DNA of 60,238 nucleotides, the filler included. It is 6 parts of 6 records of this genome, joined end to end, with 100 filler letters (N's around TTAATTAATTAA, not from the genome) between each part and the next. Parts side by side here need not be neighbours in the genome. Positions count along the whole stretch, not along the records: positions 15,549 to 23,459 come from DRR723986_6913; 5 more parts are not named here. One strand, written 5' to 3'. Positions 11,284 to 47,487 of this stretch are shown piece by piece. Every line of letters begins with the position of its first letter. The stretch's first letter is position 1. The notes below the pieces were generated by a model, which saw nothing but the letters and a program-made list of their open reading frames with translations, searched no databases and was not told where the DNA came from. Made by a program: the position numbers and the translations under genes.

Positions 11284-12075
11284 TTAGTGGCCAAGGATCT
11301 GGCTGAGGAACAGCTTGGTCCGATCTGATTGCGGGTTGTTAAAGAACTCTTCTGGTTCGTTCTGTTCCACAATCTGCCCCGCATCCATAAAGATCACGCG
11401 GTTCGCAACCTGACGAGCAAAGCCCATCTCGTGCGTCACGCAGAGCATGGTCATACCTTCTTCGGCCAGCTCGATCATGGTGTCGAGCACCTCTTTGATC
11501 ATCTCAGGGTCCAGCGCCGATGTTGGTTCATCAAACAACATGATCCGCGGCATCATGCACAGCGATCTGGCAATCGCCACACGCTGCTGCTGACCACCCG
11601 ACAACATGCCCGGATACTTATGGGCCTGCTCTGGAATTTTGACCTTTTCCAAGAAATGCATCGCACGCTCTTCGGCCTCTTTCCGGGGCGTCTTGCGCAC
11701 CCAGATCGGAGCCAACGTACAGTTTTCAAGGATCGTCAGATGCGGAAACAAGTTGAAGTGCTGGAACACCATGCCAACTTCGGAGCGGATCTTGTCGATG
11801 TTCTTGAGGTCATTTGACAGCTCAGTCCCATCCACAATGATCTTGCCCTGTTGGTGCTCTTCCAACGCATTCAGACAGCGGATCAGGGTCGATTTCCCCG
11901 AGCCCGAAGGCCCGGCGATAACGATCCGTTCGCCTTGATTAACGGTGAGGTTGATATCCCGCAACACGTGGAACGACCCGTACCACTTGTTCATGTTCGA
12001 GATTTCAATCGCGACCTCATCCGAGACCTGCATCTTTGAACGGTCGATTTCGCGGTTTGTAGCAAGTTCAGACAT
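11284..12075 (-). CDS. bztD: General L-amino acid ABC transporter ATPase (BztD/AapP)
   Basis: [25 protein letters not shown]; operon context. Confidence 0.93.
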
Positions 12076-12087
12076 AGGTTGAACTCC

Positions 12088-13392
12088 TTAATGGTGGCCA
12101 GTCTGAAGCTTACGCTCCAGATACATGGAATATCGGGACATAGAGAAACAGACGATGAAGAACAGGAACGCGATAAAGGCGAACAGTTCCCAATAGATGC
12201 CGTTCCAGGCGGTATCGGCGCGGATGGCACTTGCCAATCCAATCACGTCAAACAACCCGATAATCGACACCAGCGTCGTATCTTTAAAGATCCCAATGAA
12301 TGTACTCACGATCCCAGGAATAGAGATTTTCAGAGCTTGCGGCATGATGATCAACCGCTGCGCCTGCCAGTAATCCAGACCCAGACTGTCAGCGCCCTCA
12401 TATTGACCACGTGGCAAAGCCGCGAGGCCGCCCCGGATCACCTCGGCCATATAGGCGGCCGAAAAGAGGGTCATCATGATCATGACACGCAGAATGATGT
12501 CAAAATTCGTGCCTGGCGGCAGGAAAATGTTCAACAGCAACGACGCCACAAACAGCAGAGTGATCAGTGGCACACCGCGAATGAATTCGATGAAGCCCAC
12601 ACACAATGCTTTGACAATCAACAGATCCGATTGCCGCCCCAAGGCGAGAACAATACCGATGGGCAGTGACACACCAATGGCCACAACACCCAACAAGATC
12701 GCAAGCATGAAACCACCGAACTTACGGCTGGCGACAGCTTCGAGCCCAATGGGCATAGCCGAAGACAGCGCCTCGACGATTGGACCTGACAAAACCAGCC
12801 ACCAGATCACAGCAACTGAAACGCCTGCAATCATCGCAATCAATTCGCCAACAGCTTCGGTTGCGTATTTGATGATCAAGTAAGCGATGACAAAACCAAC
12901 AGCCGCACTGAGCGGACCCCAAATTGTGCCACCCCACATCAGGAACACCATCAGGAAGGGATAGGCTGCCGTCAAAATCAGCATCTTGGACGACACACGA
13001 TCCGAGAACAGGATCGGGCTCAGCGCTGCAAGCAGCAGGACCAAAGACAGGATTGGGCGCCAGTACATATCGCTCGGATAGAACCCGAACAACAACTGCA
13101 ACCAACGATCGTTGATAACGCCCCAACATGCGTGACCATGGGTAGATCCCCATGTTGCTTTCATGATCTCGCGGCATTCGCCCAGTGAATCGGCATTCCA
13201 AACAGATTGGAATACCCAAGGCAGAGCCCCCGCCAACACGTAATAGATCGCAGCAATAGCAACGATGGTCAGCGCAGAGTTAAACCAGCCTGAAAACAGG
13301 TTGTGTCTGGCCCAGCCAATCACCCCAACTTCGGAGGCAGGCGGTGCCTTTTCCGGCAACATTTCTGTGCGGACAAATGAAACTTCACTCAT
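12088..13392 (-). CDS. bztC: Amino acid ABC transporter permease (BztC/AapM)
   Basis: FIRGVPLI, AEVIRGG, EAA-like loop, FKDTTL. Confidence 0.92.
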   Translation of the reverse strand: MSEVSFVRTEMLPEKAPPASEVGVIGWARHNLFSGWFNSALTIVAIAAIYYVLAGALPWVFQSVWNADSLGECREIMKATWGSTHGHACWGVINDRWLQLLFGFYPSDMYWRPILSLVLLLAALSPILFSDRVSSKMLILTAAYPFLMVFLMWGGTIWGPLSAAVGFVIAYLIIKYATEAVGELIAMIAGVSVAVIWWLVLSGPIVEALSSAMPIGLEAVASRKFGGFMLAILLGVVAIGVSLPIGIVLALGRQSDLLIVKALCVGFIEFIRGVPLITLLFVASLLLNIFLPPGTNFDIILRVMIMMTLFSAAYMAEVIRGGLAALPRGQYEGADSLGLDYWQAQRLIIMPQALKISIPGIVSTFIGIFKDTTLVSIIGLFDVIGLASAIRADTAWNGIYWELFAFIAFLFFIVCFSMSRYSMYLERKLQTGHH

Positions 13393-13393
13393 A

Positions 13394-14662
13394 TTACCGC
13401 TCCACCAATTTGACGCTGTTGTTGTACCAGTTCATCACAGCCGAAATGCTCAACGAGATGATCAGATAGGCAAGCATCAGCAACAGAACACATTCCAGCT
13501 CGCGGCCGGTCTGGTTCATCGTGATACCACCCATTGTGCCCGTGATATCCATATAACCAACCGCGATTGCCAAGGACGAGTTCTTGGTCAGGTTGAGATA
13601 GTTGGAAATCATTGGCGGAATGATCACACGCAGCGCTTGTGGCAGGATCACCAGACGCATGGTCTTACCCGGGCGAATGCCCAAAGCCGACGCGGCCTCG
13701 GTCTGACCTTTAGAGATCGCCAAGATGCCGGCCCGTACGATTTCCGCGATAAACGCAGCTGTGTACAGAGACAGAGCAAGCCAGAGGGCGATCAGCGAGT
13801 TCCGCATGTGCGTCCCGCCTTTGAAATTGAACCCTTTGAGTTCAGGATAGCCAAAGTGACAGCCCAGAACCGTAAGTAGGATGGCCATCGGCACAAACAG
13901 CAAACCTAGCTGGATATACCAGATCTTGGGGCGGTCACCGGTCGCCTCTTGCGTCGCAGCCGCTTTGGCAGCCACTTTACGCATCGCAAAAATGCTGAGC
14001 GCAAGAACTGCAATAACAGCAACGAGGTCCAAAGAGATGTCAAACCGCAGGCTGGAATCACCAAACAAGTGAATATTGCCCAAGCTGCGCGAGAACAGAA
14101 ATTCCGGGATATAGACACCCCGGTTCGTCACAGCAACACTGTCAAACAGGTTCATTGTTGCTGTTGGTTCCGCACCACGGAAGGCGCGCGGTGCCGGAAG
14201 GCTTTCGATCATAATGGCCATCGCCAAAACGATCCAAAGCAGAACGGGCACGTTCCGGAACATTTCTACGTAAACGGTCATGATCCGCGCAACCAGCCAG
14301 TTCGATGACAATCGCAGAACGCCGACAAACACCCCAATGATGGTGGCCGTGATACAGCCCAGAACAGCAACCACCAGCGTGTTCAACAAGCCCATCAGGG
14401 CAGCACGCAGGTGAGTATCCCGAGAGGTATATTCCAGCAGTCGCTGGTTGATGTCATAGCTGGCAGGTTCGCTAAAGAACCCAAAATCAATGGGTTTGCC
14501 CAAAGCGGCGAGGTTCTGCGCAGTGTTGTTGATAAGCCAAGCAGCCAACAACATAAAACAGAGCATTGCGATGACTTGGATCGTGGCTGATCGATACCGC
14601 GTATCATAAAGGAGCATCGACAGCCGGAACTGCTCCTTAGGCGGGTCAGTGAGAGTCGTCAT
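13394..14662 (-). CDS. bztB: Amino acid ABC transporter permease (BztB/AapQ)
   Basis: GLLNTL, FRNVP, AEIVRAG, LTKNSSL. Confidence 0.92.
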   Translation of the reverse strand: MTTLTDPPKEQFRLSMLLYDTRYRSATIQVIAMLCFMLLAAWLINNTAQNLAALGKPIDFGFFSEPASYDINQRLLEYTSRDTHLRAALMGLLNTLVVAVLGCITATIIGVFVGVLRLSSNWLVARIMTVYVEMFRNVPVLLWIVLAMAIMIESLPAPRAFRGAEPTATMNLFDSVAVTNRGVYIPEFLFSRSLGNIHLFGDSSLRFDISLDLVAVIAVLALSIFAMRKVAAKAAATQEATGDRPKIWYIQLGLLFVPMAILLTVLGCHFGYPELKGFNFKGGTHMRNSLIALWLALSLYTAAFIAEIVRAGILAISKGQTEAASALGIRPGKTMRLVILPQALRVIIPPMISNYLNLTKNSSLAIAVGYMDITGTMGGITMNQTGRELECVLLLMLAYLIISLSISAVMNWYNNSVKLVER

Positions 14663-14751
14663 GACCTATGTGTATCCCCGTGAGACCCTGATTTGTCTTT
14701 CGGCGAAGTTTCTCTTCGCTCACTGAAATCAGGCACGTTTTTGAAAAGGCA

Positions 14752-14781
14752 AAAAGGGCGCAGGTTTCCCCGCGCCCTTTT
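14752..14781 (-). terminator. Intercistronic stem-loop after the binding-protein gene
   Basis: AAAAGGGCGC...GCGCCCTTTT, giving a U tract on the minus strand. Confidence 0.65.
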
Positions 14782-14791
14782 CACATGATGT

Positions 14792-15448
14792 TTAGCGGAA
14801 TGGGGGCGAATACAGCAGGCCGCCTTCGGTCCACTGTGCGTTCAGACCACGTGCCAGACCGATGGGGGTTTCTTCGCCGATGTTTTTGGCAAAGATTTCA
14901 CCATAGTTGCCGCCCGCCATGATGGCGCGCTTGGCCCACTCGGCGTCCAGACCCAGCATTTCACCCAGAGTCCCTTCGGAACCAAGCAGACGCTTGATTT
15001 CTGGGTTGTCTGTCGAAGATGCGATTTCAGCAACGTTTGCCGAAGTCACGCCCAGCTCTTCTGCTGTGATTACAGCGTTCAGAGTCCAGCGTACGACATC
15101 ACCCCATTCGTTGTCGCCGTGGCGAACCAACGGGCCCAGAGGCTCTTTGGAGATGATTTCGGGCAACAGAGCGTGCGCCGCAGGATCTTCGAAAGATGCG
15201 CGTGTGGCCGCCAGACCAGATGCGTCGGTGGTGTAAACGTCGCACGCACCAGCCAAGTACTGCTGCTGAGCTTCGGCGTTTGTTTCGATCGGAACCGGCT
15301 CATAGCTGATGTTGTTGGTGCGGAAGAAGTCCGCCAAGTTCAGCTCGGTGGTTGTCCCGGTCTGAATGCAAACAGTTGCACCATCCAGATCTTTGGCGGA
15401 CGAAACGCCCAGCTCTTTGGGGACCATGAAGCCCTGACCGTCATAGTA
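14792..15448 (-). CDS. bztA: Amino acid ABC transporter substrate-binding protein (BztA/AapJ), 5'-truncated
   Basis: GATVCIQTGTTTE, ISKEPLGP, GNYGEIF, GGLLYSPPFR. Confidence 0.93.
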   Translation of the reverse strand, partial: YYDGQGFMVPKELGVSSAKDLDGATVCIQTGTTTELNLADFFRTNNISYEPVPIETNAEAQQQYLAGACDVYTTDASGLAATRASFEDPAAHALLPEIISKEPLGPLVRHGDNEWGDVVRWTLNAVITAEELGVTSANVAEIASSTDNPEIKRLLGSEGTLGEMLGLDAEWAKRAIMAGGNYGEIFAKNIGEETPIGLARGLNAQWTEGGLLYSPPFR

Positions 15449-15548
15449 NNNNNNNNNNNNNNNNNNNNNNNNNNNNNNNNNNNNNNNNNNNNTTAATTAA
15501 TTAANNNNNNNNNNNNNNNNNNNNNNNNNNNNNNNNNNNNNNNNNNNN
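15449..15548. other. Artificial contig spacer
   Basis: N44-TTAATTAATTAA-N44 (stops in all six frames). Confidence 0.99.
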
Positions 15549-16505
15549 CCAACGGTCCCACGGCATTTCCTGATTGCCATAGTTGCACTCGTAATACCGA
15601 TGATGCAGCTGGTGATAAAACGTCCCCAGTGCCAGTTTGCGCTTGTCCTTAATCAGCAAATCCTCATAGCCCGTATGGCTCATCGCCGCGCCGGGGCCCT
15701 GAAACACGATGTGGAAATACAAGTGGATCGGGTGCGAGGCCACGACCCAGTGGATGCACAGCGTGGTCAGATAGATAAAGTGCTCCACCGGGTGCATCGA
15801 AAATCCCGACCACGGGCCAATGCAGACATTTCGGTGATGCAGCGCATGCACGCGCCGATATAGGAACGGTTGATGCAGCAGCCGATGCACCCAATAGAAA
15901 TGAAACGCTGACCACATCGGAATGATCACCAGAAACGCCAAAAACCAAACCGGGCTTTCGGCGAAGGTAATCGTAGGCGTGTACCCATTCGCCATCAGCC
16001 ACATGGACACCACCTGAAACCCGGTCAACTGCAACACGCCCGAGCCAAGCGACCAGAACATATTGTCCAGCACCTGGTCCTTGAAATCCCACAGCTTGTT
16101 GTTCTTGCCCTGATCGCGGCGTTCGAACTTCAGCTTTTTCCCCTGCGCCTTGCGCATGTAAAAATACCAATGCAGCGTGCCCGCCACCGCAAAGATCATC
16201 ACAAAGTTGATGACATAGATCTGCGCGATCCAGCCAAAGGCAAAGCTCTGCGCCGTGTCCAACGACGGATAAAAGAAATACCACAGCGCCACGGCCGCGA
16301 TGGCCATGCACACCCGCTCGCTCAGCGTCAGCCAATTGCGCGCCAACCACCCCAGCAAAAAGGCCGGGTTGGGCGGCCACTGAAAGATCGACGGATCCTG
16401 CAGCGGCAATTCCGGGTGATAATTCCACTCACGCGTCATATCCTGCATCTGCGCATCCGAAGGTGACGCAGACATATGATCCAGATTTGGGGTCGTGTCG
16501 GTCAT
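15549..16505 (-). CDS. Sterol desaturase / fatty acid hydroxylase family di-iron membrane enzyme, 3'-truncated
   Basis: HFYWVHRLLH, VHALHH, SHTGY, YHQLHH, CNYG, PWDRW. Confidence 0.88.
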
Positions 16506-16539
16506 TCTGGCGCCTCCCTCTTGGCCAAAACTCAGGTCT

Positions 16540-17379
16540 TTATTGGTGCAGCGGGGTCCAGCGGTCCAAGGCTTCGCTCAACTTGTCGGCCTCGCCCGGC
16601 AGCATCCCAACGGTATGGGCTGCGTCCGGAAAGGCACCAGATTGCACGTCTGTGCGGAACCCTGTCAGGGACTTGTCCCGCTCGGCCGCCAACGCCTTGC
16701 GGATCGTTGCCACATCACCCCATGCCTTGGCGTGGCGTGGTGGGTTTTCCACATCACCGCAGATGTCCTCCATGAACGAAAAGATGATATCGCCCCCCGA
16801 CCCGGCCCCGATAGAATGGGTCAACAGCGTGGTTTTAGAATTGATCGCCTGCAACGCCTCAACCGCAACGCATTCCACTTCGACCGCTGCGGCACCTGCA
16901 TCCTCATACCGGCGCATCCAGTCGAGTAACTTCATCGCCTCCTCGGCTGTCTTGCCAAACGTCTTTAATCCCCCTGTTAGGGTCGATTTTCGCGGCACCA
17001 GCCCCACATGGCCCTGCACGGCAAGCCCCTCGTTGGCGATCAATTCAACGATCCCCATACCGCGGGGGGTAAAGATCGCATCGGCACCCTTTTCCGCCGC
17101 CTTCATCGCCGCCGTCAGGCATTCCTGCGGCTCAAAATATTGGCACATTGTCTGGCTTGAGGTGATGAACGTGTCCGGCGCACCGGCGCGAACCACATCG
17201 TAATCCTGATCTGAAATGGTGATCAAATCGATCCCCATCTCCTGACAGGCGCGCGCTTCACCCTCACTCACCGCAGATACTTGGGTCATCTTTTTGCCAA
17301 CCGCCTTGTTGGCGCGCAGGCAATCCACCGTCAAATTGCGACGCGCAGGCTGGCCGCCATAGGTATAGATATTCTTCAT
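16540..17379 (-). CDS. Divergent PanB-like (ketopantoate hydroxymethyltransferase family) protein
   Basis: VRAGAPDT, GHVGLVP, GGLKTFGK, AGAAAVEVECV, SIGAG, GAFP; lacks the canonical AYD, GDSLG, DxPF and KxEG motifs. Confidence 0.82.
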   Translation of the reverse strand: MKNIYTYGGQPARRNLTVDCLRANKAVGKKMTQVSAVSEGEARACQEMGIDLITISDQDYDVVRAGAPDTFITSSQTMCQYFEPQECLTAAMKAAEKGADAIFTPRGMGIVELIANEGLAVQGHVGLVPRKSTLTGGLKTFGKTAEEAMKLLDWMRRYEDAGAAAVEVECVAVEALQAINSKTTLLTHSIGAGSGGDIIFSFMEDICGDVENPPRHAKAWGDVATIRKALAAERDKSLTGFRTDVQSGAFPDAAHTVGMLPGEADKLSEALDRWTPLHQ

Positions 17380-18494
17380 TCTGTTTCGCCCATCGCGCTT
17401 AGGTAAATGTCATGAAAATGGCGCATCGCATGTTCTGAAATGTCGTGCGCGTCCGGGTCGGTGATGTACCATCCTTGTGTGTACCCGCGCTGATGCAGCC
17501 CCTTTTGCACGTTTTCACACAAATCGCGGTCCTCAATCGACACCACATCCGTGGACCACTCAGCCCGCAACCGCGCGCGCTCGGCCATGCCCGGATCGGT
17601 TGGTGCAACAGTGGTCAGCGACAGCGACTCTCGTTCCGTCAGATCCGGCGTGACCGGATCAAACCGCGAGGCATAAAACCCCTGCGCACCGGGAAACTGG
17701 CCAAAGATGGTGTTCGGGAACAAAAACCAGAACTGTCCCGTGGTCACATCATGCTCCAGATCCAGCGGAAAGGCGGCATTGTCGGCCTTCATCGCCGTGG
17801 GCGCATTTTGATAGGTATAGTTCTGGTACAGCTCAAACCTGCTCTGGGCGATGTCCATCATATCGTCAAACGAATGGTGCGCCGGGCCGCAGTGGTGGCA
17901 TTCCAGATAGTTGTCCAGCATCACCTTCCAGTTGGATTTGCAGGTATAGGTATGGCCATAGGCGGCCTCCCCTTCGACCACCAGATTGGGCAGATCCGGC
18001 ACACAGGCCAAAATCTGCGCCTCAAGCCCCGGCGCAAATTCGGCCAGCGGCTGCGCCTCGAGATCAAGGTTCACAAACAGGAAATCAACAATCCGATCCA
18101 CCCGGATTTCCGACAACCCAATGGTGCTGCGCTCTGGCGCGTCGGTATTGCCGCGCTTTTGCATTCCCCGTAACGCCCCATCCAACCCAAAGGTCCAAGC
18201 GTGATACGGACAGGTCAAAACCGCCTTATTCCCCGATCCCGTGACCAATTGATGCCCCCGATGCGGGCAAACGTTGTAGAACGCCCGTATGTCGCCCACA
18301 CGATCTTTGACTAGGAATATGTTCTGATCAAACAGGCTGAGCGTTAGAAAATCGCCGGGGTTCTCAAGCTGTCCGGCATGACCGGCCAATTGCCAACTGT
18401 TCAGCAACAGCTCTTTCTCGCGATCCAAAATCCGCGTGTCCGTATAGTACCGGGCGGCAAGCGTGCGCGTCCGGGCTGGAGGGGTGTCCAACAT
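17376..18494 (-). CDS. Rieske oxygenase alpha subunit, CntA/YeaW-like
   Basis: CPHRGH...CPYH Rieske motif; NWKVMLDNYLECHHCGPAH; ED...VQKGL; ISEH; ATG at 18494. Confidence 0.9.
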   Translation of the reverse strand: MLDTPPARTRTLAARYYTDTRILDREKELLLNSWQLAGHAGQLENPGDFLTLSLFDQNIFLVKDRVGDIRAFYNVCPHRGHQLVTGSGNKAVLTCPYHAWTFGLDGALRGMQKRGNTDAPERSTIGLSEIRVDRIVDFLFVNLDLEAQPLAEFAPGLEAQILACVPDLPNLVVEGEAAYGHTYTCKSNWKVMLDNYLECHHCGPAHHSFDDMMDIAQSRFELYQNYTYQNAPTAMKADNAAFPLDLEHDVTTGQFWFLFPNTIFGQFPGAQGFYASRFDPVTPDLTERESLSLTTVAPTDPGMAERARLRAEWSTDVVSIEDRDLCENVQKGLHQRGYTQGWYITDPDAHDISEHAMRHFHDIYLSAMGETE

Positions 18495-18543
18495 GGGGTA
18501 ACCTTTCTGGCGTGTCGTCTGGCGGGGCAAACCCGCCAATCGC

Positions 18544-19299
18544 TTAGCTGGCGTAATCTGATCCTTCGGCGTCCAGGATCGCTTTCATTTCGCGCATATG
18601 TGCCTCAGCCTGGCTTGGGTAATCCTCAAGCTCTTGCGCGGTTTTCTCGGCAATCTCGTCGCTGAGAATGCGCAGTTTCTGACCCGTCTGCAGGGCGCGA
18701 ATATAGGTTTCCGCAGCCCGCTCGAAATAATACAGCCGATTGAACGCATCTGCTGCATCGCTGCCGATCACCAAGACGCCATGGTTGCCCATGATCATCA
18801 CCTTTTTCTTGGGATCACTCAGCATTGATGCACAGCGCTCGCCTTCGCTCTCAAACGCAAGACCGCCGAATTCTTCGTCAATGACATAGCGGTTGTAAAA
18901 CGTCGCCGTGTTTTGATCGATCGGGGGAATGTTGCTATCCGCCAGCGCCGCCAACACCGTGGCGTGGATCGAATGCACATGCATCACGCAACGCGCGTGC
19001 GGGCAATGACGGTGGATCGAGCCGTGCAATCCCCATGCGGTCGGGTCCGGCGCGCCGGGTTTATCCATCGTGGTCGGATCATTGGCATCCAGAAACAACA
19101 GGTTTGACGCTTTGACCCGGTCGAAATGCATCTGGTTCGGGTTCATCAAGAACTGCGACCCATCGTCATTCACCGCAAGGCTAAAATGGTTCGCCACCGC
19201 CTCATGCATGTTCAACTTGACGGTCCAGCGAAAGGCCGCAGCCATATCAACACGTTCGGACCAATGATCCATATTGGGTCGCAGGTTGGTAACGCTCAT
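18544..19299 (-). CDS. Class II aldolase/adducin family protein
   Basis: NHFS, GLHGSIH, HVHS, GNHG metal-binding motifs. Confidence 0.9.
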   Translation of the reverse strand: MSVTNLRPNMDHWSERVDMAAAFRWTVKLNMHEAVANHFSLAVNDDGSQFLMNPNQMHFDRVKASNLLFLDANDPTTMDKPGAPDPTAWGLHGSIHRHCPHARCVMHVHSIHATVLAALADSNIPPIDQNTATFYNRYVIDEEFGGLAFESEGERCASMLSDPKKKVMIMGNHGVLVIGSDAADAFNRLYYFERAAETYIRALQTGQKLRILSDEIAEKTAQELEDYPSQAEAHMREMKAILDAEGSDYAS

Positions 19300-19394
19300 G
19301 GTCGAATCTCCGGAATGGCGGGGTAAGTGTGTCAGCTGGTTAAAACCTGCATCCCTCGCCTCTGTTTGACCAATGAAAAAAACATGGGTATCTC

Positions 19395-19409
19395 ATTAGC
19401 GTTACTAAT
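19395..19409. promoter_or_regulatory. LysR (GcvA-type) binding box
   Basis: ATTAG-cgtta-CTAAT palindrome fitting T-N11-A, between divergent genes. Confidence 0.65.
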
Positions 19410-19418
19410 ACCAAGGTT

Positions 19419-20300
19419 ATGCAAATGCAAAATCCACTGCCGCCGCTGGGCTGGCTGCGCACGTTTGAAGCAGCAGCGCGCCATTTGTCGTTCACCGGGG
19501 CCGCGCGGGATCTGAACATGACCCAAAGTGCGGTGAGCCAGCAGATCAAATCGCTCGAGGGGCATCTGGGGCGCCCCCTGTTTCACCGCCGCCCCCGTGC
19601 GCTGGAACTGACCGAAGCCGGGATCACATACCTGCCCGTAGTCCGCGAGGCCTTTCGCACCTTGGTGCGTGGCACACGGGCGGTTCTGGGCGATCAACAG
19701 AACACCGTTCAGGTTCAATCCAACCTGACCTTTGCAGTCAACTGGCTGGCCCCCCGCCTGCCGGCTTTCCGGGCTCTGCATCCCGAGGTACAGCTGAACA
19801 TTTCAACCGAATTGTGGGAACCCCGCGAAATGGCCGAAGGCGCAGCAGTTGAGGTCCGGTATTCCCTGCGCCCGGCAGATACAGTCCGCACCGAATTGCT
19901 GCGAACCGATCACTACTATCCCGTCTGTGCGCCTGACTTTCCTGTGACGCTGAATACCCTGCAAGACCAACCGCTGTATGACTGTTCCAACCTGCTGTCG
20001 AATTGGGCAAACTGGGCTGAGGATCAGGCTCTAACATGGACCAATCCGCCGATAACCTATGCGACGACCTATATGGTCAGCCTGTCTGTTGCGATGGCTG
20101 GCGGGGGGCTTTGCCTCGCACATGATACAATCGTCCAAGGCCTGATCAAAGACGGCCGCCTGATCGCGCCGTTTGAACACCGCGCAAAAATGCCCGAGGC
20201 CTACTACCTGCTACTGTCCCCCCAAGCCGAAGAAACCCCGGGCGCCATCGCGTTTACCACCTGGCTGCGCGCCGAAATGGCCGCCGAGCAAACGCCCTAA
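19419..20300 (+). CDS. LysR family regulator, GcvA/AmpR-like
   Basis: LPPLGWLRTFEAAARHLSFTGAARDLNMTQSAVSQQIK; WLAPRL. Confidence 0.93.
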   Translation: MQMQNPLPPLGWLRTFEAAARHLSFTGAARDLNMTQSAVSQQIKSLEGHLGRPLFHRRPRALELTEAGITYLPVVREAFRTLVRGTRAVLGDQQNTVQVQSNLTFAVNWLAPRLPAFRALHPEVQLNISTELWEPREMAEGAAVEVRYSLRPADTVRTELLRTDHYYPVCAPDFPVTLNTLQDQPLYDCSNLLSNWANWAEDQALTWTNPPITYATTYMVSLSVAMAGGGLCLAHDTIVQGLIKDGRLIAPFEHRAKMPEAYYLLLSPQAEETPGAIAFTTWLRAEMAAEQTP

Positions 20301-20448: not shown

Positions 20449-20877
20449 TTAGCCCTCAGAAATCGGGCGACTGGGCACCCACGCATAGCCATCCGCACAC
20501 AGAATATAGCTCTCGCGCAGCCCATGCGGTTTGTTCGCGGCCTCTTGCAGTACCATCGCCCCCGCCGCCTTGGCCCGTTCGACGGCTGCATCGGGATCTG
20601 TTTCGTACAGACGTATTTCTAAGCCTGCCCCGCGTGGTGGGTTCTCTGGCAGCAGCCCCAGCAGGGGATTCGAATGATAGGTCTGATCCGAATGCAGCTG
20701 AAACACCTGATCGCCATAGGTGACAATCGCAAAATCCGCCGTCACCTGATGCGACTTCATCTCAAAAACAGTCTCTAAAAAAGCGCATTCTGCCCTAACG
20801 TCCCGCACCAGCAGGTTCAAACCGATCCCGCGCAAAGACCGCCCAAACCCACCTGCATCTATTGTCTCGTAATCCAC
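20449..20877 (-). CDS. VOC/glyoxalase family protein
   Basis: GLNLLVRDV, FQLH, EIRLY, KPHGLRE, DGYAW; GTG start. Confidence 0.85.
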   Translation of the reverse strand: MDYETIDAGGFGRSLRGIGLNLLVRDVRAECAFLETVFEMKSHQVTADFAIVTYGDQVFQLHSDQTYHSNPLLGLLPENPPRGAGLEIRLYETDPDAAVERAKAAGAMVLQEAANKPHGLRESYILCADGYAWVPSRPISEG

Positions 20878-21021: not shown

Positions 21022-22824
21022 ATGGAACATACCCCTTTCCCAAGCTGGCCCGACGTCGCCCCCCAATTGATCGCCGTAGCAGCAGGCCGCGCGCCTGCAG
21101 ATACTGTCATCCGAGGCGGCATATGGGTGAACGTGCACACCCGTGAAACGCTGCCCGATCATTCCATTGCCATTGTTGCAGGTCGCATCGCCTATGTAGG
21201 ACCTGACGCCAGCCACTGCATTGGACCTGACACGCAGATCATCGAGGCCAATGGGCGTTATATGCTGCCCGGTCTGTGCGACGCACATATGCATATTGAA
21301 TCGGGCATGCTAACCCCTGCAGAATTCGCCCGTGCCGTTATCCCGCATGGCACCACCTCAATGTTCACCGACCCGCATGAGATCGCCAACGTTCTGGGTC
21401 TCGACGGGGTGCGCATGATGCATGACGAGGCGCTGCTGCAACCCGTCAATATCTTTACCCAAATGCCATCCTGCGCGCCCTCGGCCCCGGGACTGGAGAC
21501 AACCGGATACGAAATCACCCCTGATGACGTCGCCGAGGCAATGACATGGCCCGGTATCATCGGTTTGGGCGAAATGATGAATTTCCCCGGCGTGACCAAT
21601 GCCGACCCCAAGATGTTGGCGGAAATCGCTGCCACCCAACGCGCCGGTAAGACCGTCGGCGGGCACTATGCCTCGCCCGATCTGGGACCAGACTTTGCCG
21701 CTTACGTTGCTGGTGGACCGGCGGATGACCACGAAGGCACCTGCGAAGCCGACGCCATTGCCCGGATGCGTCAGGGTATGCGGTCCATGATCCGGCTAGG
21801 CTCGGCTTGGTATGACGTGGAAACACAAATCACGGCGATAACCGAAAAAGGTCTGGATCCACGCAACATGATCCTGTGCACCGATGACTGCCATTCGGGC
21901 ACCTTGGTCAATGACGGCCACATGAACCGGGTTGTGCGTCACGCCATTGCGTGCGGATGCGATCCGCTGATCGCGCTGCAAATGGCCACCATCAACACCG
22001 CGACGCATTTCGGTTTGGAACGCGACATCGGGTCGATCACGCCGGGGCGTCGGGCCGACATTATCCTCAGCTCGGACCTGACTGACCTGCCAATCGAACT
22101 CGTCATCGCGCGGGGCCAAATCGTGGCTGAAAACGGCTCTATTCAAGTCGATTGCCCCCATTTCGACTGGCCCGACCACGCCCGCGGCACGGTTCATCTG
22201 GGTCACAGCCTAACCGGCACCGATTTCGAAATCCATGCACCCGATGGGGCAAATTCGGTCCGCGCCAATGTCATCGGCATGGTTGAAAATCAAGCCCCGA
22301 CCAAAGCGCTCAAGGCCGACCTGCCGGTACAGGATGGCTTGGTCCAAGGGGACGGTGACACCTGCCAGATCGCGCTGGTGGAACGCCACCGCGCGACGGG
22401 GGGCGTCACAAACGCCTTTGTGTCGGGCTTTGGCTACGCCGGCGCCATGGCGATGGCCTCGACCGTCGCTCATGACAGCCACCACATGATCGTGGTCGGC
22501 ACCGACCGGGATCAGATGGCACTGGCCGCCAACCGCCTAGCCGAGGTCGGCGGCGGTGTCACCCTGTTCAAGGACGGTCAAGAACTGGCATTGGTCGAAC
22601 TCCCCATTGCGGGCCTGATGTCCGACAACCCCGCGACCGAGGTCGCCGCCAAAGCCGACACATTGGTCGCCGCGATGCAGGCCTGCGGCTGCTCGCTGAA
22701 CAACGCTTATATGCAACACTCCTTGCTGGCGCTTGTTGTCATCCCCGAACTGCGCATCTCGGACAAAGGATTGGTAGACGTGCGCACCTTTGAAATGATC
22801 GACCTGCTGGAGCCCGCTGAATGA
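21022..22824 (+). CDS. ade: Adenine deaminase (Ade/AdeC type)
   Basis: PGLCDAHMHIES, DPHEIANV, GEMMNFPG, DDHE, CTDD, TVAHDSHH. Confidence 0.95.
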   Translation: MEHTPFPSWPDVAPQLIAVAAGRAPADTVIRGGIWVNVHTRETLPDHSIAIVAGRIAYVGPDASHCIGPDTQIIEANGRYMLPGLCDAHMHIESGMLTPAEFARAVIPHGTTSMFTDPHEIANVLGLDGVRMMHDEALLQPVNIFTQMPSCAPSAPGLETTGYEITPDDVAEAMTWPGIIGLGEMMNFPGVTNADPKMLAEIAATQRAGKTVGGHYASPDLGPDFAAYVAGGPADDHEGTCEADAIARMRQGMRSMIRLGSAWYDVETQITAITEKGLDPRNMILCTDDCHSGTLVNDGHMNRVVRHAIACGCDPLIALQMATINTATHFGLERDIGSITPGRRADIILSSDLTDLPIELVIARGQIVAENGSIQVDCPHFDWPDHARGTVHLGHSLTGTDFEIHAPDGANSVRANVIGMVENQAPTKALKADLPVQDGLVQGDGDTCQIALVERHRATGGVTNAFVSGFGYAGAMAMASTVAHDSHHMIVVGTDRDQMALAANRLAEVGGGVTLFKDGQELALVELPIAGLMSDNPATEVAAKADTLVAAMQACGCSLNNAYMQHSLLALVVIPELRISDKGLVDVRTFEMIDLLEPAE

Positions 22825-23459: not shown

Positions 23460-23559
23460 NNNNNNNNNNNNNNNNNNNNNNNNNNNNNNNNNNNNNNNNN
23501 NNNTTAATTAATTAANNNNNNNNNNNNNNNNNNNNNNNNNNNNNNNNNNNNNNNNNNNN
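23460..23559. other. Artificial contig spacer
   Basis: N44-TTAATTAATTAA-N44. Confidence 0.99.
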
Positions 23560-23561
23560 AG

Positions 23562-24086
23562 TTCTCGGGCGGGCAGCGGCAGCGCATCGCCATCGCCCGC
23601 GCGCTGGCGATGGAGCCCGACCTTCTGGTTCTGGACGAGGCGGTGGCCTCGCTCGACGTGTCCATCCAGGCGCAGGTGCTGAACCTCTTCATGGACCTGC
23701 GCAGGCGGCTGGGGCTGACGGCGATCTTCATCAGCCACGACCTTGGCGTGGTGCGCCACGTCTGCGACCGCGTCGCGATCATGTACCTTGGTCGCGTGGT
23801 GGAAACCGGCAGCGCCGAGGCGCTTTATACCGACCCGCAGCACCCCTACACCCGGGCGCTTCTGGCCTCTGTCCCGACGCTGGGCACGGGCCGCGCGGCG
23901 TTCCAGCCGATCAAGGGAGAGATCCCCTCGCCGCTGAACCCGCCGCCGGGCTGCGCCTTCCATCCGCGCTGCCCGCACGCCGGGCCGCGCTGCCGGGCCG
24001 AGGTGCCCGCGCTGGTCCCGGCGGGCCCCGGTCAGGCGGCCTGCCATCTGCACGACGGCGGCACAGGACAGGAGCAAGCGGCATGA
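23562..24086 (+). CDS. Oligopeptide/dipeptide ABC transporter ATPase (OppF-like), 5'-truncated
   Basis: [33 protein letters not shown]-terminal domain. Confidence 0.92.
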
Positions 24087-25546
24087 GCGACCTTGGCACC
24101 CGCGTCGGGCGGATCAACGACATTCTCTGCGGCGTGAACCTGCTGCAATGGGACAGCCGCACCAAGATGCCGGCGGGCGGCGCCGCCGCGCGCGGCCAGC
24201 AGATCGCCACGCTGAAGGGGCTGGCGCGCGAGATGATCCTTGCGCCGGAAACGCAGGCCGCCGCCGAGGCCGCGCTGGACGGTCCCGACGCCGACGCCGC
24301 CCGCGTGGTTCTGGAGGCTGCGGCCTATCACGCCGCCCTGCCCGCCGCGCTGCTTCAGGCGCAGGCCGAACAGGGCGCCGAGGCCGGTCAGGCGTGGCAA
24401 GAGGCGCGCCGCACCGCCGATTTCGCGCTGTTCCGGCCCTATCTGGAACGCTCCGTCGACCTCGCGCGCCAGCAGGCTCAGGCGCTGGGGTACGACGCGC
24501 ACCCCTACGACCCGCTCGTGGATCTTTACGAGCCGGGCGAGACGGCGGCCTCTCTCACGGCGCTCTTCGACGGGCTGCGCGCGGGCATCCGGCCAATTCT
24601 CGACGCGGCGCGGGACAGGGAGCCGCCCCGGCGCGACTTCCTCTTCCGCCACTACCCGAAGGCGGACCAGCAGCGCCTTTGCCACAAGCTCGCGGCGCTG
24701 ATGGGCTACGACTTCGACCGGGGGCGGCTGGACACCACCGTCCACCCCTTCGAGATCTCGATGACGCGCGGCGACGTGCGCATCACCTCGCGCTGGCGCG
24801 AGGATTACCTGCCCATGGCGATCTTCGGCTCGCTGCACGAGACCGGCCATGCGATGTACGAACAGGGCGTGGCGCCGGGCCTGACGCGCACCGCCTTCGC
24901 GACCGACCTGCGGCTGCTCTACGCCGTGGGCGGCACCAGCTTCGGCATGCACGAAAGCCAGTCGCGGCTGGTCGAGAACCACATCGGCCGCGCGCTGCCC
25001 TTCTGGCAGGCGCATTTCGGCCTTCTGCGCGATGCCTTCCCCGAGCAGTTGCGCGACGTGACCGCCAAGGACTGGCACGCGGCGATCAACCACAGCGCCC
25101 CCGGCCTGACGCGGGTCGAGGCGGACGAACTGACCTACGACCTGCACATCATGCTGCGGGTGCGGCTGGAAATGGCGCTGCTGGACGGCAGCCTTTCGGT
25201 GGCCGACCTGCCCGAGGCGTGGAACGCCGCGATGCAGGAGGACCTTGGCCTGACGGTGCCGGACGACGGCGCGGGCTGTCTGCAGGACGTGCATTGGTCG
25301 ATGGGCTATTTCGGGTCCTTCCCGACCTATACGGTGGGCAATGTCACCGCCGCCGCGCTCTTTGCCGAGGCACGGCAGGACGCCGGGCGGCAGGCCGCGC
25401 TGGAGCGGGGCGACCCCGCGCCGGTGCTGGCTTTCCTCGAGGACAAGGTCTGGCGGCACGGGCGCACCAAAACCCGCGCCGAGATCTGCGGGCCGATGGA
25501 CACGGGCCCCTATCTCGCCCACCTCGAGGCCCGCTTCGCCGGGTGA
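24083..25546 (+). CDS. Carboxypeptidase, M32 (Taq) family
   Basis: [35 protein letters not shown]. Confidence 0.95.
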
Positions 25547-25747
25547 GGCCGGGCGGAAAGCCCTTGGCCGCGCAGCGGTCGGGAGTCTGGGAGTGGCCGG
25601 AAAGGGCTTTCCCCCTGCCGCGCGGTCAGGGCGCCTCAGGGGCGTTTGGTCCGTGACGCGCGCGCCGGTTTACGGGCGCTTCGGGGGAGGGTCGGCGTGG
25701 TCCCGGCAAGCCGCAGCGCGTGCGCCGCGCCGCGCGCCTCTTGCGCC

Positions 25748-26542
25748 CTAGCCGTTCGCCGAACCGAAGAGCGTGCCCATTCCGCCGTCCACGCGCAGGT
25801 CCACCCCGGTGACGAAGCCCGCCGCGTCCGAGGCGAGGAAGAGCGCCGCCTCCGCCACGTCCCATGCGGTGCCCTGACGGCCCATCGGCACCTTGGCTGC
25901 CCGCGCGCGGGCCAGCGCCTCGGGGTCGGTGCCCGGACCGATGAAGCTGGCGGCGTGGGGCGTGTCGATCATCCCCGGCAGGACGCAGTTGGCGCGGACC
26001 CCGCGCCCGGCGTATTCGATGGCCACCGACTTCGACAACCGTTGCAGCGCCGCCTTCGACGCCTCGTAACCGACGTAGCGGTAAGGCCCGTTCGACTCCC
26101 CCGCGAGGCTGGAGATGTAGACGATGGCGCCGCCGCCGTCCTCGAGCAGCGGCAGCGCCGCCTGCGTGCAGTGGAAAGCCGCGTCGAGGTTCACCGCGAA
26201 GACCTTTTGCCAGTCGTCGAAACTGGTCTGTTCGACGCCGCCCGGCGTGCTGATGCCGATGTTGAAATGCAGGATGTCGAGGCCCCCCATGGCGCGCGCC
26301 GCCTCTGCCATGGCGCCTGCCGCGTCCGGGTCGGTCATGTCCCCGGCAAAGACCTGCGCCACGCCGCCCTCGCCCCGGATCAGCGCCGCCGTCGCCTCGG
26401 CGGCCTCCGCGTTGCGATCGACGCAAAGCACCTCGGCCCCCTCGCGGGCGTAGAGCACCGCCGCCGCCTTGCCGTTGCCCCAGCCCTCGCCGACCGATCC
26501 GGCGCCGATCACCACGGCGTATTTGCCCGCCACCCGGCCCAT
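25748..26542 (-). CDS. Short-chain dehydrogenase/reductase
   Basis: GAGSVGEGWGNG, YEASK, PGMIDTP, VDGG; real start ATG 26542 overlaps the dctM stop. Confidence 0.92.
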   Translation of the reverse strand: MGRVAGKYAVVIGAGSVGEGWGNGKAAAVLYAREGAEVLCVDRNAEAAEATAALIRGEGGVAQVFAGDMTDPDAAGAMAEAARAMGGLDILHFNIGISTPGGVEQTSFDDWQKVFAVNLDAAFHCTQAALPLLEDGGGAIVYISSLAGESNGPYRYVGYEASKAALQRLSKSVAIEYAGRGVRANCVLPGMIDTPHAASFIGPGTDPEALARARAAKVPMGRQGTAWDVAEAALFLASDAAGFVTGVDLRVDGGMGTLFGSANG

Positions 26543-27906
26543 CAGTCGAAGACCTTGTTCGGCAGCCACATCGCCAGATCCGGCCAGGCGATGGCCACAC
26601 CGAGGATCACCAGCTGCAAGAGCACGAAGGGGATGATCCCCCGGTAGATGTCGCGCATCGACAACAGGTTGCCCGCCGCGCCCTTGAGGTAGAAGAGCGC
26701 AAAGCCGAAGGGTGGCGTCAGGAAGGAGGTTTGCAGGTTCAGCGAGACGAGGATGGCGAACCAGTAGATCATGTCGCCCCGCGCCACGTGCTCGCCAAGG
26801 TCCATGACCTGCACGATGGGCGCGAAGATCGGCAGCATGATCAGCGTGATCTCGATCCAGTCGAAGAAGAAGCCCATGACGAAGACCATGCCCATCATGG
26901 CGATCAGCAGGCCCCAGTCGCCGAAAGGCAGCGCATTGGCGGTCTCGACGATGAAGTGCTCGCCGCCGACCTTGCGGAAGATGTAGCTGAAGGCGGTCGC
27001 GCCGACGAAGATGAAGAACAGCATCCCCAGCGAGCGGATGGAGCCGTCCATGCTTTCCGACAGGCTGGCGCGGTTCAGGCGGCCACGCAGCGCGCCCAGC
27101 AGCAGCGCGGCAAAGACGCCGACGCCAGAGGCCTCGGTCGGCGTGGCGATGCCGCCGAGGATCGAGCCCAGCACGGCCACGATCATGACCAGCGGCGCCA
27201 GCACCGATTTCAGCGACTCCAGCCACAGCCCGGCGCGGTCCTCGTCCCAGGCGGGCTGGCGAGGCGCGATAGAGGGTTGCAGGGCAGAGCGCAGGACGAT
27301 GTAGACCACATAGGCGCCCGACAGCAGCAGCCCCGGCATCAGCGCGGCGACGAACAGCCGCCCCAGCGAGATCGACAGCAGGTCGCCCATGAAGACCAGC
27401 ATCACCGAGGGCGGGATCAGGATGCCCAGCGTTCCCGCGCTGGCCACCGTACCTGCGGCAAGGCCCTTGTCATAGCCGCGCTCCACCATGGTCGGGATCG
27501 CCAGCGCAGTCAGCATCACCACCGAGGCGCCGATGATGCCGGTGGCGGCGGCGAGGATCGTGCCCATCAGCACCACCGCCAGCGCAAGACCGCCGGGCAC
27601 CACGCGCATCAGCCGTTGCAGCGTCAGAAGCAGGTCTTCGGCGATGCGTGTCTTCTCCATGATGAGACCCATGAAGATGAACATGGGCGCGGCGACCAGA
27701 ACGCCATTCTCGATGGTGCCGGAAAAGATCCGGTTGGGCAGCAGCGTTGCATGAACCAGCCGCATGTCGCCGGTCCAGACGGCGAGCAGGCCGAAGACCA
27801 GCGAAATGCCCATGAGCATGATCGCCACGGGCGCACCCGAGAAGAGTGCCACCACCAGCGACAGGAACATCGCGCCGGGCAGCGCGGCAGAGATCAACTC
27901 GATCAT
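26542..27906 (-). CDS. TRAP transporter large permease (DctM)
   Basis: AAPMFIFMG, GTLGILIPPS, ATPTEAS, QTSFLTPPFG. Confidence 0.95.
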   Translation of the reverse strand: MIELISAALPGAMFLSLVVALFSGAPVAIMLMGISLVFGLLAVWTGDMRLVHATLLPNRIFSGTIENGVLVAAPMFIFMGLIMEKTRIAEDLLLTLQRLMRVVPGGLALAVVLMGTILAAATGIIGASVVMLTALAIPTMVERGYDKGLAAGTVASAGTLGILIPPSVMLVFMGDLLSISLGRLFVAALMPGLLLSGAYVVYIVLRSALQPSIAPRQPAWDEDRAGLWLESLKSVLAPLVMIVAVLGSILGGIATPTEASGVGVFAALLLGALRGRLNRASLSESMDGSIRSLGMLFFIFVGATAFSYIFRKVGGEHFIVETANALPFGDWGLLIAMMGMVFVMGFFFDWIEITLIMLPIFAPIVQVMDLGEHVARGDMIYWFAILVSLNLQTSFLTPPFGFALFYLKGAAGNLLSMRDIYRGIIPFVLLQLVILGVAIAWPDLAMWLPNKVFD

Positions 27907-28424
27907 ATCCGCGCCTCCAGATCGGGGTTTCTCAGCGCGGCAAGGCAGCGGAACAGCACCGACAGCCCGCCGAAGATGGTCAGCACCGCGCCGATGGGAA
28001 TGGCGGATTTGATGATCCAGCGGTTCGACAGGCCGACCCCGCCGGGCGAGCCTTCGCCGCGCTGGAAGCTGCGCAGGGTGAAGTCATAGCCGTACCATGT
28101 CAGCAGAGCCATGAAGGGCACGAGGAAGGCCACGATGGCCACGATCTCGAACCACAGCCGGGTGTTGCGGCGCATGTGCTGGCTGATGAGGTCGATGCGG
28201 ACGTGGGCGTTCTCGACATAGGCATAGCCGAAACACAGCACCGCGATGGCGCCGTGCAGGTGCCACTCCAGCTCCTGCAACTTGAACGAGCCGGTGGAGA
28301 AGAACCGCCGCCCGACTACGTCGTAGAGGATGACGGCCATCAGCACCAGCAAGAGCCAGCCGCAGAGTTTGGCCACCGCCCGGCACGGCAGCGCCAGCCG
28401 TTCGGACCACGTCAGCAATGTCAT
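27903..28424 (-). CDS. TRAP transporter small permease (DctQ)
   Basis: ELEWHL, HVRID, four TM segments. Confidence 0.93.
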   Translation of the reverse strand: MTLLTWSERLALPCRAVAKLCGWLLLVLMAVILYDVVGRRFFSTGSFKLQELEWHLHGAIAVLCFGYAYVENAHVRIDLISQHMRRNTRLWFEIVAIVAFLVPFMALLTWYGYDFTLRSFQRGEGSPGGVGLSNRWIIKSAIPIGAVLTIFGGLSVLFRCLAALRNPDLEARI

Positions 28425-28476
28425 GAGAAACCCGTGAGCGAAGGGCCGGGCGGCGCGTCAGCCGCCCGGCAGCCGG

Positions 28477-29499: not shown

Positions 29500-29525
29500 G
29501 GGATCTCCTCCAGACTATGATGGTG

Positions 29526-29542
29526 TGTCCATATCGTGGACA
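29526..29542. promoter_or_regulatory. Putative IclR operator 1
   Basis: TGTCCA-tatcg-TGGACA perfect inverted repeat upstream of dctP. Confidence 0.7.
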
Positions 29543-29656
29543 TCTGTTCTTGGGCGTCAGGGTAAGCACCGCCACGGGCAGGTGTAAACAGGAAAGTGCA
29601 ATCCTCTTGCCAAGGCCCGAGCCATCGCGCACGATTGAGAAAGGCGAGGAGAAAAC

Positions 29657-29673
29657 TGTCCACATGATGGATA
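29657..29673. promoter_or_regulatory. Putative IclR operator 2, overlapping the IclR start codon
   Basis: TGTCCA-catga-TGGATA, second copy of the same motif. Confidence 0.65.
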
Positions 29674-31035: not shown

Positions 31036-31135
31036 NNNNNNNNNNNNNNNNNNNNNNNNNNNNNNNNNNNNNNNNNNNNTTAATTAATTAANNNNNNNNN
31101 NNNNNNNNNNNNNNNNNNNNNNNNNNNNNNNNNNN
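31036..31135. other. Artificial contig spacer
   Basis: N44-TTAATTAATTAA-N44. Confidence 0.99.
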
Positions 31136-37344: not shown

Positions 37345-37444
37345 NNNNNNNNNNNNNNNNNNNNNNNNNNNNNNNNNNNNNNNNNNNNTTAATTAATTAA
37401 NNNNNNNNNNNNNNNNNNNNNNNNNNNNNNNNNNNNNNNNNNNN
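37345..37444. other. Artificial contig spacer
   Basis: N44-TTAATTAATTAA-N44. Confidence 0.99.
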
Positions 37445-47387: not shown

Positions 47388-47487
47388 NNNNNNNNNNNNN
47401 NNNNNNNNNNNNNNNNNNNNNNNNNNNNNNNTTAATTAATTAANNNNNNNNNNNNNNNNNNNNNNNNNNNNNNNNNNNNNNNNNNNN
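47388..47487. other. Artificial contig spacer
   Basis: N44-TTAATTAATTAA-N44. Confidence 0.99.

Follow-up and report, generated by a model that had tools for sequence, protein, structure and literature searches.

A LysR-linked operon joining a CntA-like Rieske oxygenase to a PanB-like protein: a candidate route of quaternary-amine catabolism in the marine Roseobacter group

PanB uses 5,10-methylene-tetrahydrofolate (5,10-methylene-THF), and the GcvT-fold domains of Tdm, DmmD and the dimethylglycine and sarcosine oxidases are THF-binding modules that capture one-carbon (C1) units in methylamine catabolism. The formyl-THF deformylase PurU is found in demethylation gene clusters. MocD, MocE and MocF reportedly form the three-component oxygenase of rhizopine catabolism, an account attributed to Bahar and co-workers in 1998, and we know of no mention of a PanB-like or PurU partner in the moc literature. 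Among Rieske oxygenases, those of clade Va act on quaternary ammonium compounds and are described, in the available parts of two sources (PMC7948474, PMC10952381), as having an aromatic residue 203 that contacts the ammonium by a pi-cation interaction, a Glu205 that acts as a bridge and, in some members, Cys206-X-X-Cys209. Here we describe a four-gene operon in which a CntA-like oxygenase with this signature is coupled to a PanB-like protein. The operon was found in a 60,238-nt stretch of DNA (the window) made of six contigs joined by five N44-TTAATTAATTAA-N44 linkers, on the 7.9-kb contig at 15549-23459. We propose that it is a LysR-controlled operon for the aerobic breakdown of a trimethylammonium compound other than carnitine, the C1 unit of which would be passed to folate; the genes and their neighbourhoods suggest a probability of about 0.45 for this reading.

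The Rieske oxygenase and its PanB-like partner

Open reading frame (ORF) listing together with Pfam and NCBIfam scans placed class II aldolase-like, Rieske, PanB-like and FA_hydroxylase-type genes, all co-oriented, on the minus strand and a GcvA-like LysR gene on the plus strand. The features of the contig were:

15549-16505, minus strand: membrane di-iron hydroxylase (Pfam FA_hydroxylase, PF04116, 'sterol desaturase family'); 3' end cut by the contig end, with an N run from 15548
16540-17379, minus strand: PanB-like protein, 279 aa; partial match to PF02548
17376-18494, minus strand: CntA-like Rieske non-haem-iron oxygenase alpha subunit, 372 aa; Pfam Rieske and Ring_hydroxyl_A; ORF open to a TTG at 18539
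18544-19299, minus strand: class II aldolase/adducin-fold protein, 251 aa; PF00596, NCBIfam family PRK07490
19343-19382, unstranded: a pair of additional conserved blocks in the intergenic region, GGATGCAGGTT and TTTTTTTC(A/G)TTGGTCAAA as read on the operon strand; columns invariant or nearly so in 7 loci
19395-19409, unstranded: inverted repeat ATTAG-N5-CTAAT, a LysR-type T-N11-A box seen in the sequence of the 119-nt divergent intergenic region
19419-20300, plus strand: GcvA-like LysR regulator, divergent from the operon; Pfam HTH_1 and LysR_substrate
21022-22824, plus strand: adenine deaminase, over the family cutoff

The stop of the Rieske gene and the start of the PanB-like gene overlapped as ATGA at 17376-17379. 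The aldolase and Rieske genes were separated by 49 nt, the PanB-like and hydroxylase genes by 34 nt, and the LysR and aldolase genes by 119 nt. The ATG at 18494 is likely the true Rieske start, since the five closest orthologues (the window and loci L085, L086, L001 and L003) all begin with MLDT there and the part upstream contains a TAG in the related genome G001. An earlier note on this DNA had described these ORFs and strands, the ATGA overlap, the divergent LysR gene and the ATTAG-N5-CTAAT box, all of which were borne out by the ORF listing, the domain scans and the sequence.

The Rieske oxygenase matched the CntA structure (PDB 6y8j) over its full length (E 3.2e-60, residues 26-378), which was its best match among solved structures, and was 36% identical to Escherichia coli YeaW. 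The sequence contained CPHRGH...CPYH, in agreement with the Rieske CxH...CxxH pattern, and the motif NWKVMLDNYLECHHCGPAH, and the iron ligands aligned with His208, His213 and Asp323 of CntA were kept. At the clade Va signature position the window protein reads DNYLECHHCGPAH, with all signature residues and iron ligands retained. Here DNYLECHHC provides the equivalents of Tyr203, Glu205 and Cys206/Cys209, and the signature positions were invariant in seven of seven orthologues. The full-length structural match, the identity to YeaW and the group Va signature uphold the CntA-like assignment made in the earlier note. Two of the seven residues that contact carnitine (Tyr203 and Phe258) were kept and the other five were changed, all to smaller ones (Y225S, N270G, Y295T, Y315S and F319V, read from the HMMER alignment columns). 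Because these contact residues are smaller, the substrate pocket is predicted to have more room, and carnitine is unlikely to be the substrate. A 20-row tree grouped the seven orthologues in a clade of their own (support 100/100), which long branches separated from YeaW and from two other Rhodobacteraceae paralogue clades with Phe at 203. The operon adds a third lineage to the CntA-like oxygenases of the Rhodobacteraceae, and a cntA label for it in surveys would probably be an error.

The Rieske and PanB-like genes were adjacent in five of the six genomes that had a Rieske orthologue of at least 55% identity, and in the distant locus L027 the pair was followed by a ferredoxin reductase gene. 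Among the Rieske orthologues of the family sample, the most distant one (56% identity; L087:9898-12894, genome G194) preceded an AMP-binding, acyl-CoA-synthetase-type gene, not a PanB-like gene, and had its own divergent LysR gene. A complex prediction for the Rieske and PanB-like proteins scored 0.00, which weighs neither for nor against binding. No CntB/YeaX-type reductase was found on the window contig or within 9 kb downstream in L085, and YeaX-like/NAD_binding_1 reductase matches lay only elsewhere in the genomes G051, G001 and G103. The sole strong YeaX-like match of each of these relatives sat in an open frame of approximately 1,070-1,090 aa, apparently as a fusion with other domains (G051:C8:159016-159939, G001:C34:157251-158174 and G103:C14:45568-46491).

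The PanB-like protein matched PF02548 with 103 bits at profile positions 69-258 only and stayed below the panB equivalog cutoffs (TIGR00222, 80.5 vs 207.55; NF001452, 86.2 vs 272). The top PDB matches of its predicted structure (pLDDT 82.6) were all PanB (1m3u, 1o68 and 3vav; TM 0.73-0.78), followed by the next fold at 0.52, and its identity to solved PanBs was 19-23%. A separate canonical PanB (262-317 bits) was encoded beside the paralogue (72-86 bits) in five of five genomes tested. The PanB-like protein is a distinct paralogue family, not PanB itself.

In an alignment with the canonical PanBs of these five genomes, the PanB-like proteins kept three motifs, GHxGLxP, E-C-V (with the equivalent of Glu181) and IGAG, and retained an acidic residue where PanB has Asp45. 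The 21-residue loop following Asp45 was lost, Asp84 was replaced by Ser or Ala, Lys112 by Phe, Tyr or Leu, and Glu114 by Pro, with an invariant Thr-Pro-Arg instead. We take Asp45 and Asp84 to be the holders of the Mg2+ that binds the 2-oxo acid in PanB. A simple reverse-PanB retro-aldol reaction on a 2-oxo acid is doubtful because the equivalents of Asp84, Lys112 and Glu114 are lost, and the PanB-type cleavage of this kind that the earlier note envisaged has lost ground with these conserved residues. One of these five genomes, the 1.1-Mb genome of Candidatus Actinomarina (G003, the genome of L024), kept both a canonical PanB and the paralogue (C1:618625-619212 and C2:43736-44500), with no oxygenase beside the latter; since the PanB-like family is retained in so streamlined a genome, it must have a role worth keeping.

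A scan of the PanB-like alignment against one genome per prokaryote species gave 80 loci that were kept, and some type of oxygenase (desaturase type, hydroxylase type or Rieske) was present in 35 of them. A fatty-acid-desaturase-type oxygenase occurred in 22 loci, directly upstream of the PanB-like gene in 15, a hydroxylase in 13 and a Va Rieske oxygenase in three; a small Rieske ferredoxin was present in 20 and a ferredoxin reductase in nine. The upstream oxygenase gene ended within 6 nt of the PanB-like start, or overlapped it, in 12 of 15 loci, and PanB-like/hydroxylase pairs without any Rieske enzyme were found in 10. PurU (over the NCBIfam cutoff) adjoined in 6 of the 80 loci, which lends support to the C1 unit that the earlier note had assigned to the PanB-like protein, now as folate-bound C1. 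Rhizobial loci carried LacI and a series of desaturase-type oxygenase, Rieske ferredoxin, reductase and PanB-like genes, then PurU or the inositol 2-dehydrogenase IolG (over cutoff), together with sugar-type ABC genes. These clusters, which we take to resemble the moc-type oxygenase of O-methyl-inositol catabolism, look like moc-like O-methyl-inositol demethylation wired to folate (examples are L063:4108-9807, L076, L069, L079 and L080).

In a tree of 80 PanB-like rows and four canonical PanBs, from which four loci with matches of <230 residues were left out, the PanB-like family was cleanly separate from PanB. The window fell in a 10-row clade, starred in the tree, with five Rieske-partnered members, four desaturase-partnered members and one with a hydroxylase only. 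Desaturase-partnered members stood on both sides of the deepest splits. Partners are mixed across the tree, and therefore the oxygenase type is interchangeable and the PanB-like protein constant. The PanB-like protein is the hub of the system.

The hydroxylase belongs to the FA_hydroxylase superfamily (PF04116, 69.9 bits vs a cutoff of 31) and carries the His boxes HRLLH, HALHH and HQLHH, of the HxxxH and HxxHH patterns. A total of 319 aa is present and about 24 aa are lost at the C-terminus; the L085 orthologue is 97% identical and has 343 aa. No solved structure matched the hydroxylase in a search by sequence.

A variable island in Roseobacter-group genomes

The source of the contig is a marine Roseobacter-group bacterium, and the closest database relatives of the PanB-like protein (95-98% identity) are named Phaeobacter. 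The contig was collinear with G051:C19 (locus L085), with 90.75% nucleotide identity over 7,946 nt. L085 had the same order as the window, namely adenine deaminase, a small VOC-type gene and LysR, then divergently aldolase, Rieske, PanB-like and hydroxylase; beyond the hydroxylase it carried a RidA-type gene on the opposite strand and a second hydroxylase paralogue. All four genes were present in two of the 80 PanB-like loci (L001 and L003) and in L085 and L086, which were found via the Rieske side. The exact four-gene set thus occurred in four other genomes, all of the Roseobacter group. Since the whole contig is collinear with a relative and the gene order recurs in three more genomes, the arrangement is not due to chance. 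The operon is real and conserved but narrowly distributed.

Co-occurrence of the four genes had been proposed as a check in the earlier note; the combination proved to be limited to a small clade, which weakens the reading of that note, with the Rieske gene absent from L002 and replaced in L004. In the latter, a fatty-acid-desaturase-type oxygenase and a small Rieske ferredoxin occupied the slot of the Rieske oxygenase, the remainder of the operon being syntenic. L001 and L003 had insertions of a TauD-type dioxygenase and a DddP-like M24 protein (307 bits). This dioxygenase, within the sister operon, matched TmpA with 280 bits and gamma-butyrobetaine dioxygenase with 273 bits. L086 had a second PanB-like gene where the dioxygenase would be. 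Rieske orthologues of at least 56% identity were found in 4 of the 201 sampled Rhodobacteraceae genomes. In the plasmid collection, no record covered at least 80% of the whole operon; plasmid CP081100 carried a minimal operon of LysR and, across from it, beta-hydroxyacid-dehydrogenase-like, PanB-like and sterol desaturase genes.

The aldolase is a member of the PRK07490 family (NF005689, 410.2 bits vs a cutoff of 260; PF00596, 144.8 bits), and its nearest solved relatives were 3ocr, NovR and TqaM. The family was above cutoff in 125 of the 201 Rhodobacteraceae genomes, mostly without the other operon genes. The 18 sampled aldolase loci shared a syntenic site, flanked on one side by AMP nucleosidase and adenine deaminase and on the other by a GbdR-like AraC regulator, an acyl-CoA dehydrogenase, an NDP-forming CoA ligase and a CaiD-like (crotonobetainyl-CoA hydratase-like) enoyl-CoA hydratase. 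None of the operon's other genes neighboured the aldolase in 12 of these 18 loci; it was followed by one or two hydroxylase genes in three and preceded by a gamma-butyrobetaine/TmpA-like dioxygenase in one. Since the aldolase site is syntenic while the content of the insert varies, the operon is a variable island grown from a LysR-aldolase(-hydroxylase) core, with a content that differs even among close relatives. The four-gene flank beside the aldolase (L101:7789-12987; likewise L095, L098, L100 and L002) resembles a CoA-level gamma-butyrobetaine/crotonobetaine module, for which Sinorhizobium meliloti BcoAB, as given in the available part of PMC8364193, served as the comparison.

The LysR protein scored 227.9 bits on NF008352 (GcvA), under the cutoff of 288, and is thus GcvA-like and below the threshold of the GcvA subfamily. 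Its second-best model was the choline-sulfate utilisation regulator (161 bits vs a cutoff of 324.8). The LysR gene was present only where extra genes followed the aldolase among the 18 sampled loci, and its divergent arrangement was retained in L085, L086 and L001-L004. The box at 19395-19409 reads ATTAG-CGTTA-CTAAT. Its half-sites were kept in seven of seven aligned loci, with one mismatch in L002, and the 5-nt spacer varied; fixed half-sites with a variable spacer are the pattern that would be expected of a protein-binding site. The two blocks at 19343-19382 may represent a promoter or an activation site. A consensus promoter and terminator scan gave no match in the intergenic gaps, and the terminator-like sites (10 vs 5.8 expected) all lay inside genes.

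A small gene of 142 aa (20449-20877, minus strand) lies between LysR and adenine deaminase, in a position conserved in 10 related loci; its counterpart in L094 is a glyoxalase/VOC-fold protein. An ABC transporter at 11284-15427 was rejected as an operon neighbour, as it sits on the preceding contig beyond a linker. The linkers occupy 15449-15548, 23460-23559, 31036-31135, 37345-37444 and 47388-47487, and adjacency across them is meaningless. The transporter stretch (11284-15448) is of the polar-amino-acid type, with an ATPase and two permeases that, at 434 and 422 aa, are unusually long; the contig end truncates the 5' part of the gene for the substrate-binding protein, which matched profile positions 115-250 only. 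The contig at 23560-31035 has a G+C content of 0.66-0.72 (24001-30000), vs 0.52-0.62 in the rest of the window, and many long ORFs that overlap on the two strands; it may represent a foreign island or come from a different source.

Proposed pathway and rival explanations

The operon probably serves the catabolism of a quaternary amine (onium compound). This reading fits best because the oxygenase has the Va signature, because genes similar to those for gamma-butyrobetaine dioxygenase/TmpA, DddP, GbdR and CaiD occur in related loci, and because the second-best model of the LysR protein is the choline-sulfate regulator. We further propose, tentatively and at less than even odds, that the PanB-like protein moves a formaldehyde-level C1 unit to THF. 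This role is favoured because the protein keeps the half of the PanB site that lies apart from the presumed metal and 2-oxo-acid site, because the three unrelated hydroxylating oxygenases share, as their only obvious product, a hydroxymethyl group or formaldehyde from an N- or O-methyl group, and because PurU, which regenerates THF from formyl-THF, adjoins.

In the proposed pathway, the CntA-like Rieske oxygenase would receive electrons from a reductase encoded elsewhere and hydroxylate a carbon bound to the quaternary nitrogen. The translationally coupled PanB-like protein would load the hydroxymethyl or formaldehyde-level C1 unit onto THF as 5,10-methylene-THF, and the membrane di-iron hydroxylase would hydroxylate or dealkylate further. 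On this view, the ammonium group would lose its alkyl groups one by one, first through the Rieske enzyme and then through the membrane hydroxylase(s). What is left of the skeleton would be the substrate of the class II aldolase-fold enzyme, which probably acts as a decarboxylase-type enzyme rather than a sugar-phosphate aldolase; its nearest solved relatives include decarboxylase- and oxygenase-type members (NovR, TqaM).

Several points weigh against this pathway. The roles of Asp45, Asp84, Lys112, Glu114 and Glu181 are those that we assume for PanB from the E. coli structure. The operon lacks a reductase gene and a transporter gene, both in the window and in the nearest relative. With the queries used, no oxygenase was detected in 45 of the 80 PanB-like loci, mostly in Planctomycetota, Burkholderiales and Candidatus Actinomarina, and identity to the window protein is only 34-36% for the PanB-like proteins that are linked to PurU. 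The aldolase has an uncertain place in a single pathway and the least certain role of all the proteins, because its gene is mostly solitary elsewhere. Finally, the characterized group Va enzymes (CntA, choline monooxygenase and OxyBAC) are not demethylases and the known N-demethylases belong to group Vb, according to the available part of PMC7948474, so that a C1 product is not the default for a Va signature.

A broader proposal, which we regard as doubtful, is that the PanB-like proteins are a previously unrecognized family of folate-dependent C1-capture proteins, paired with Rieske, desaturase- or hydroxylase-type demethylases or dealkylases and yielding 5,10-methylene-THF from N- or O-methyl groups. 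The family would extend from marine quaternary-amine catabolism to the rhizobial moc-like PurU clusters, and the window would encode stepwise demethylation, not trimethylamine release. If true, this would be a new function for the PanB fold and would explain how oxygenase-dependent demethylation feeds the folate C1 pool without free formaldehyde. The link between PanB-like protein, oxygenase and folate is the more general and more interesting content of the locus.

In the main rival scheme, the Rieske enzyme would be a C-N lyase of the CntA type. It would hydroxylate the backbone carbon next to the nitrogen of a non-carnitine betaine and release trimethylamine together with a 2-oxo acid or an aldehyde; the PanB-like protein would then cleave a C-C bond of this carbon skeleton and transfer the hydroxymethyl group to folate. 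The Va signature is shared with the trimethylamine-forming CntA, the PanB fold, Glu181 equivalent, GHxGLxP and IGAG are kept, and the linkage to PurU suits any reaction that makes methylene-THF. However, the equivalents of Asp84, Lys112 and Glu114, presumably the residues that hold Mg2+ and the 2-oxo acid, are replaced and the 21-residue loop is deleted, and the three unrelated types of partner oxygenase are more easily explained by a small common product. We consider this scheme unlikely.

It is somewhat less likely again that there is no single pathway and that the site is a variable insertion spot beside a housekeeping-like aldolase, filled by independent modules for different compounds. 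The aldolase has no operon partner at its syntenic site in 12 of the 18 sampled loci, and the Rieske, TauD-type, M24, second PanB-like and second hydroxylase genes are each present or absent among close relatives. Against this, LysR is found only where extra genes follow the aldolase, the box is conserved, the ATGA coupling and the short gaps are in favour of a single transcript, and Rieske/PanB-like and PanB-like/hydroxylase pairs recur in unrelated contexts.

The earlier note had favoured a special case of the C-N lyase scheme, in which the head group of the betaine lipid DGTS is degraded. The hydroxylase would cleave the ether of glyceryl-trimethylhomoserine, the Rieske enzyme would convert homoserine betaine to trimethylamine and 4-hydroxy-2-oxobutanoate, and the PanB-like protein or the aldolase would yield pyruvate and a C1 unit. 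The chemistry is coherent, an enlarged Rieske pocket would suit a substrate branched at the nitrogen-bearing carbon, and a membrane-bound hydroxylase suits a lipid; moreover, no described pathway for homoserine betaine or the DGTS head group was found in the literature, including the available part of bioRxiv 10.1101/2021.03.10.434842. Nevertheless, no gene or context specific to homoserine betaine was found, and nothing singled out either compound. The gamma-butyrobetaine/TmpA-like and DddP-like genes of the sister islands and the Cai-like flank of the aldolase speak for other onium compounds. The class II aldolase fold differs from that of pyruvate aldolases, the active site of the PanB-like protein is remodelled, and PanB-like/hydroxylase pairs occur without a Rieske enzyme in 10 loci, all of which makes this route improbable. 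A plain carnitine/gamma-butyrobetaine monooxygenase (cntA) locus can practically be dismissed: in its favour are the top rank of CntA among the solved matches and a YeaX-like reductase domain elsewhere in the genomes of relatives, but the oxygenase is only 36% identical to YeaW and forms a separate long-branch clade (100/100), five of seven carnitine-pocket residues are changed, and no cntB, malate-semialdehyde dehydrogenase or BCCT transporter gene adjoins.

Comparison with known systems

Quaternary amines such as betaines, carnitine-like compounds and the head groups of betaine lipids are major currencies of carbon and nitrogen between phytoplankton and Roseobacter-group bacteria, and whether they are demethylated or release trimethylamine makes a difference to marine nitrogen and climate-active gases. 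Literature searches, with subscription journals and supplements outside their scope, returned no description of the gene set, of an oxygenase-linked PanB paralogue or of the catabolism of homoserine betaine or the DGTS head group. The statement in the earlier note that no characterized pathway has this gene combination therefore agrees with the literature searched.

The Rieske oxygenase resembles CntA/CntB (YeaW/YeaX) in its full-length homology, Rieske motif, His-His-Asp site, bridging Glu, aromatic residue 203 and Cys-X-X-Cys, as described in the available parts of PMC7948474 and PMC10952381. Unlike that system, it shares only 36% identity, forms its own clade, has five of seven contacts changed, and is coupled to a PanB-like gene instead of a reductase, transporter or malate-semialdehyde dehydrogenase gene. 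The PanB-like protein has the TIM-barrel fold of PanB and its GHxGLxP, E-C-V and IGAG motifs. Unlike PanB, it is an extra copy beside the true PanB (5/5 genomes) and sits in oxygenase clusters, not with panC.

With the GcvT-type modules the PanB-like protein shares the proposed logic, in which formaldehyde-level carbon would be trapped as methylene-THF, and a PurU neighbour as in sox-type clusters. In contrast to them, it has a PanB-type barrel, unrelated to the GcvT fold, and its C1-capture activity is putative. The rhizopine oxygenase of the MocD/MocE/MocF type is matched in rhizobial loci, where a series of desaturase-type oxygenase, Rieske ferredoxin and reductase stands directly before the PanB-like gene; this series is absent from the window, where the Va Rieske oxygenase takes the equivalent position. 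The window hydroxylase resembles alkylglycerol monooxygenase and the FA_hydroxylase superfamily in its Pfam FA_hydroxylase domain, histidine boxes and hydrophobic N-terminal segments.

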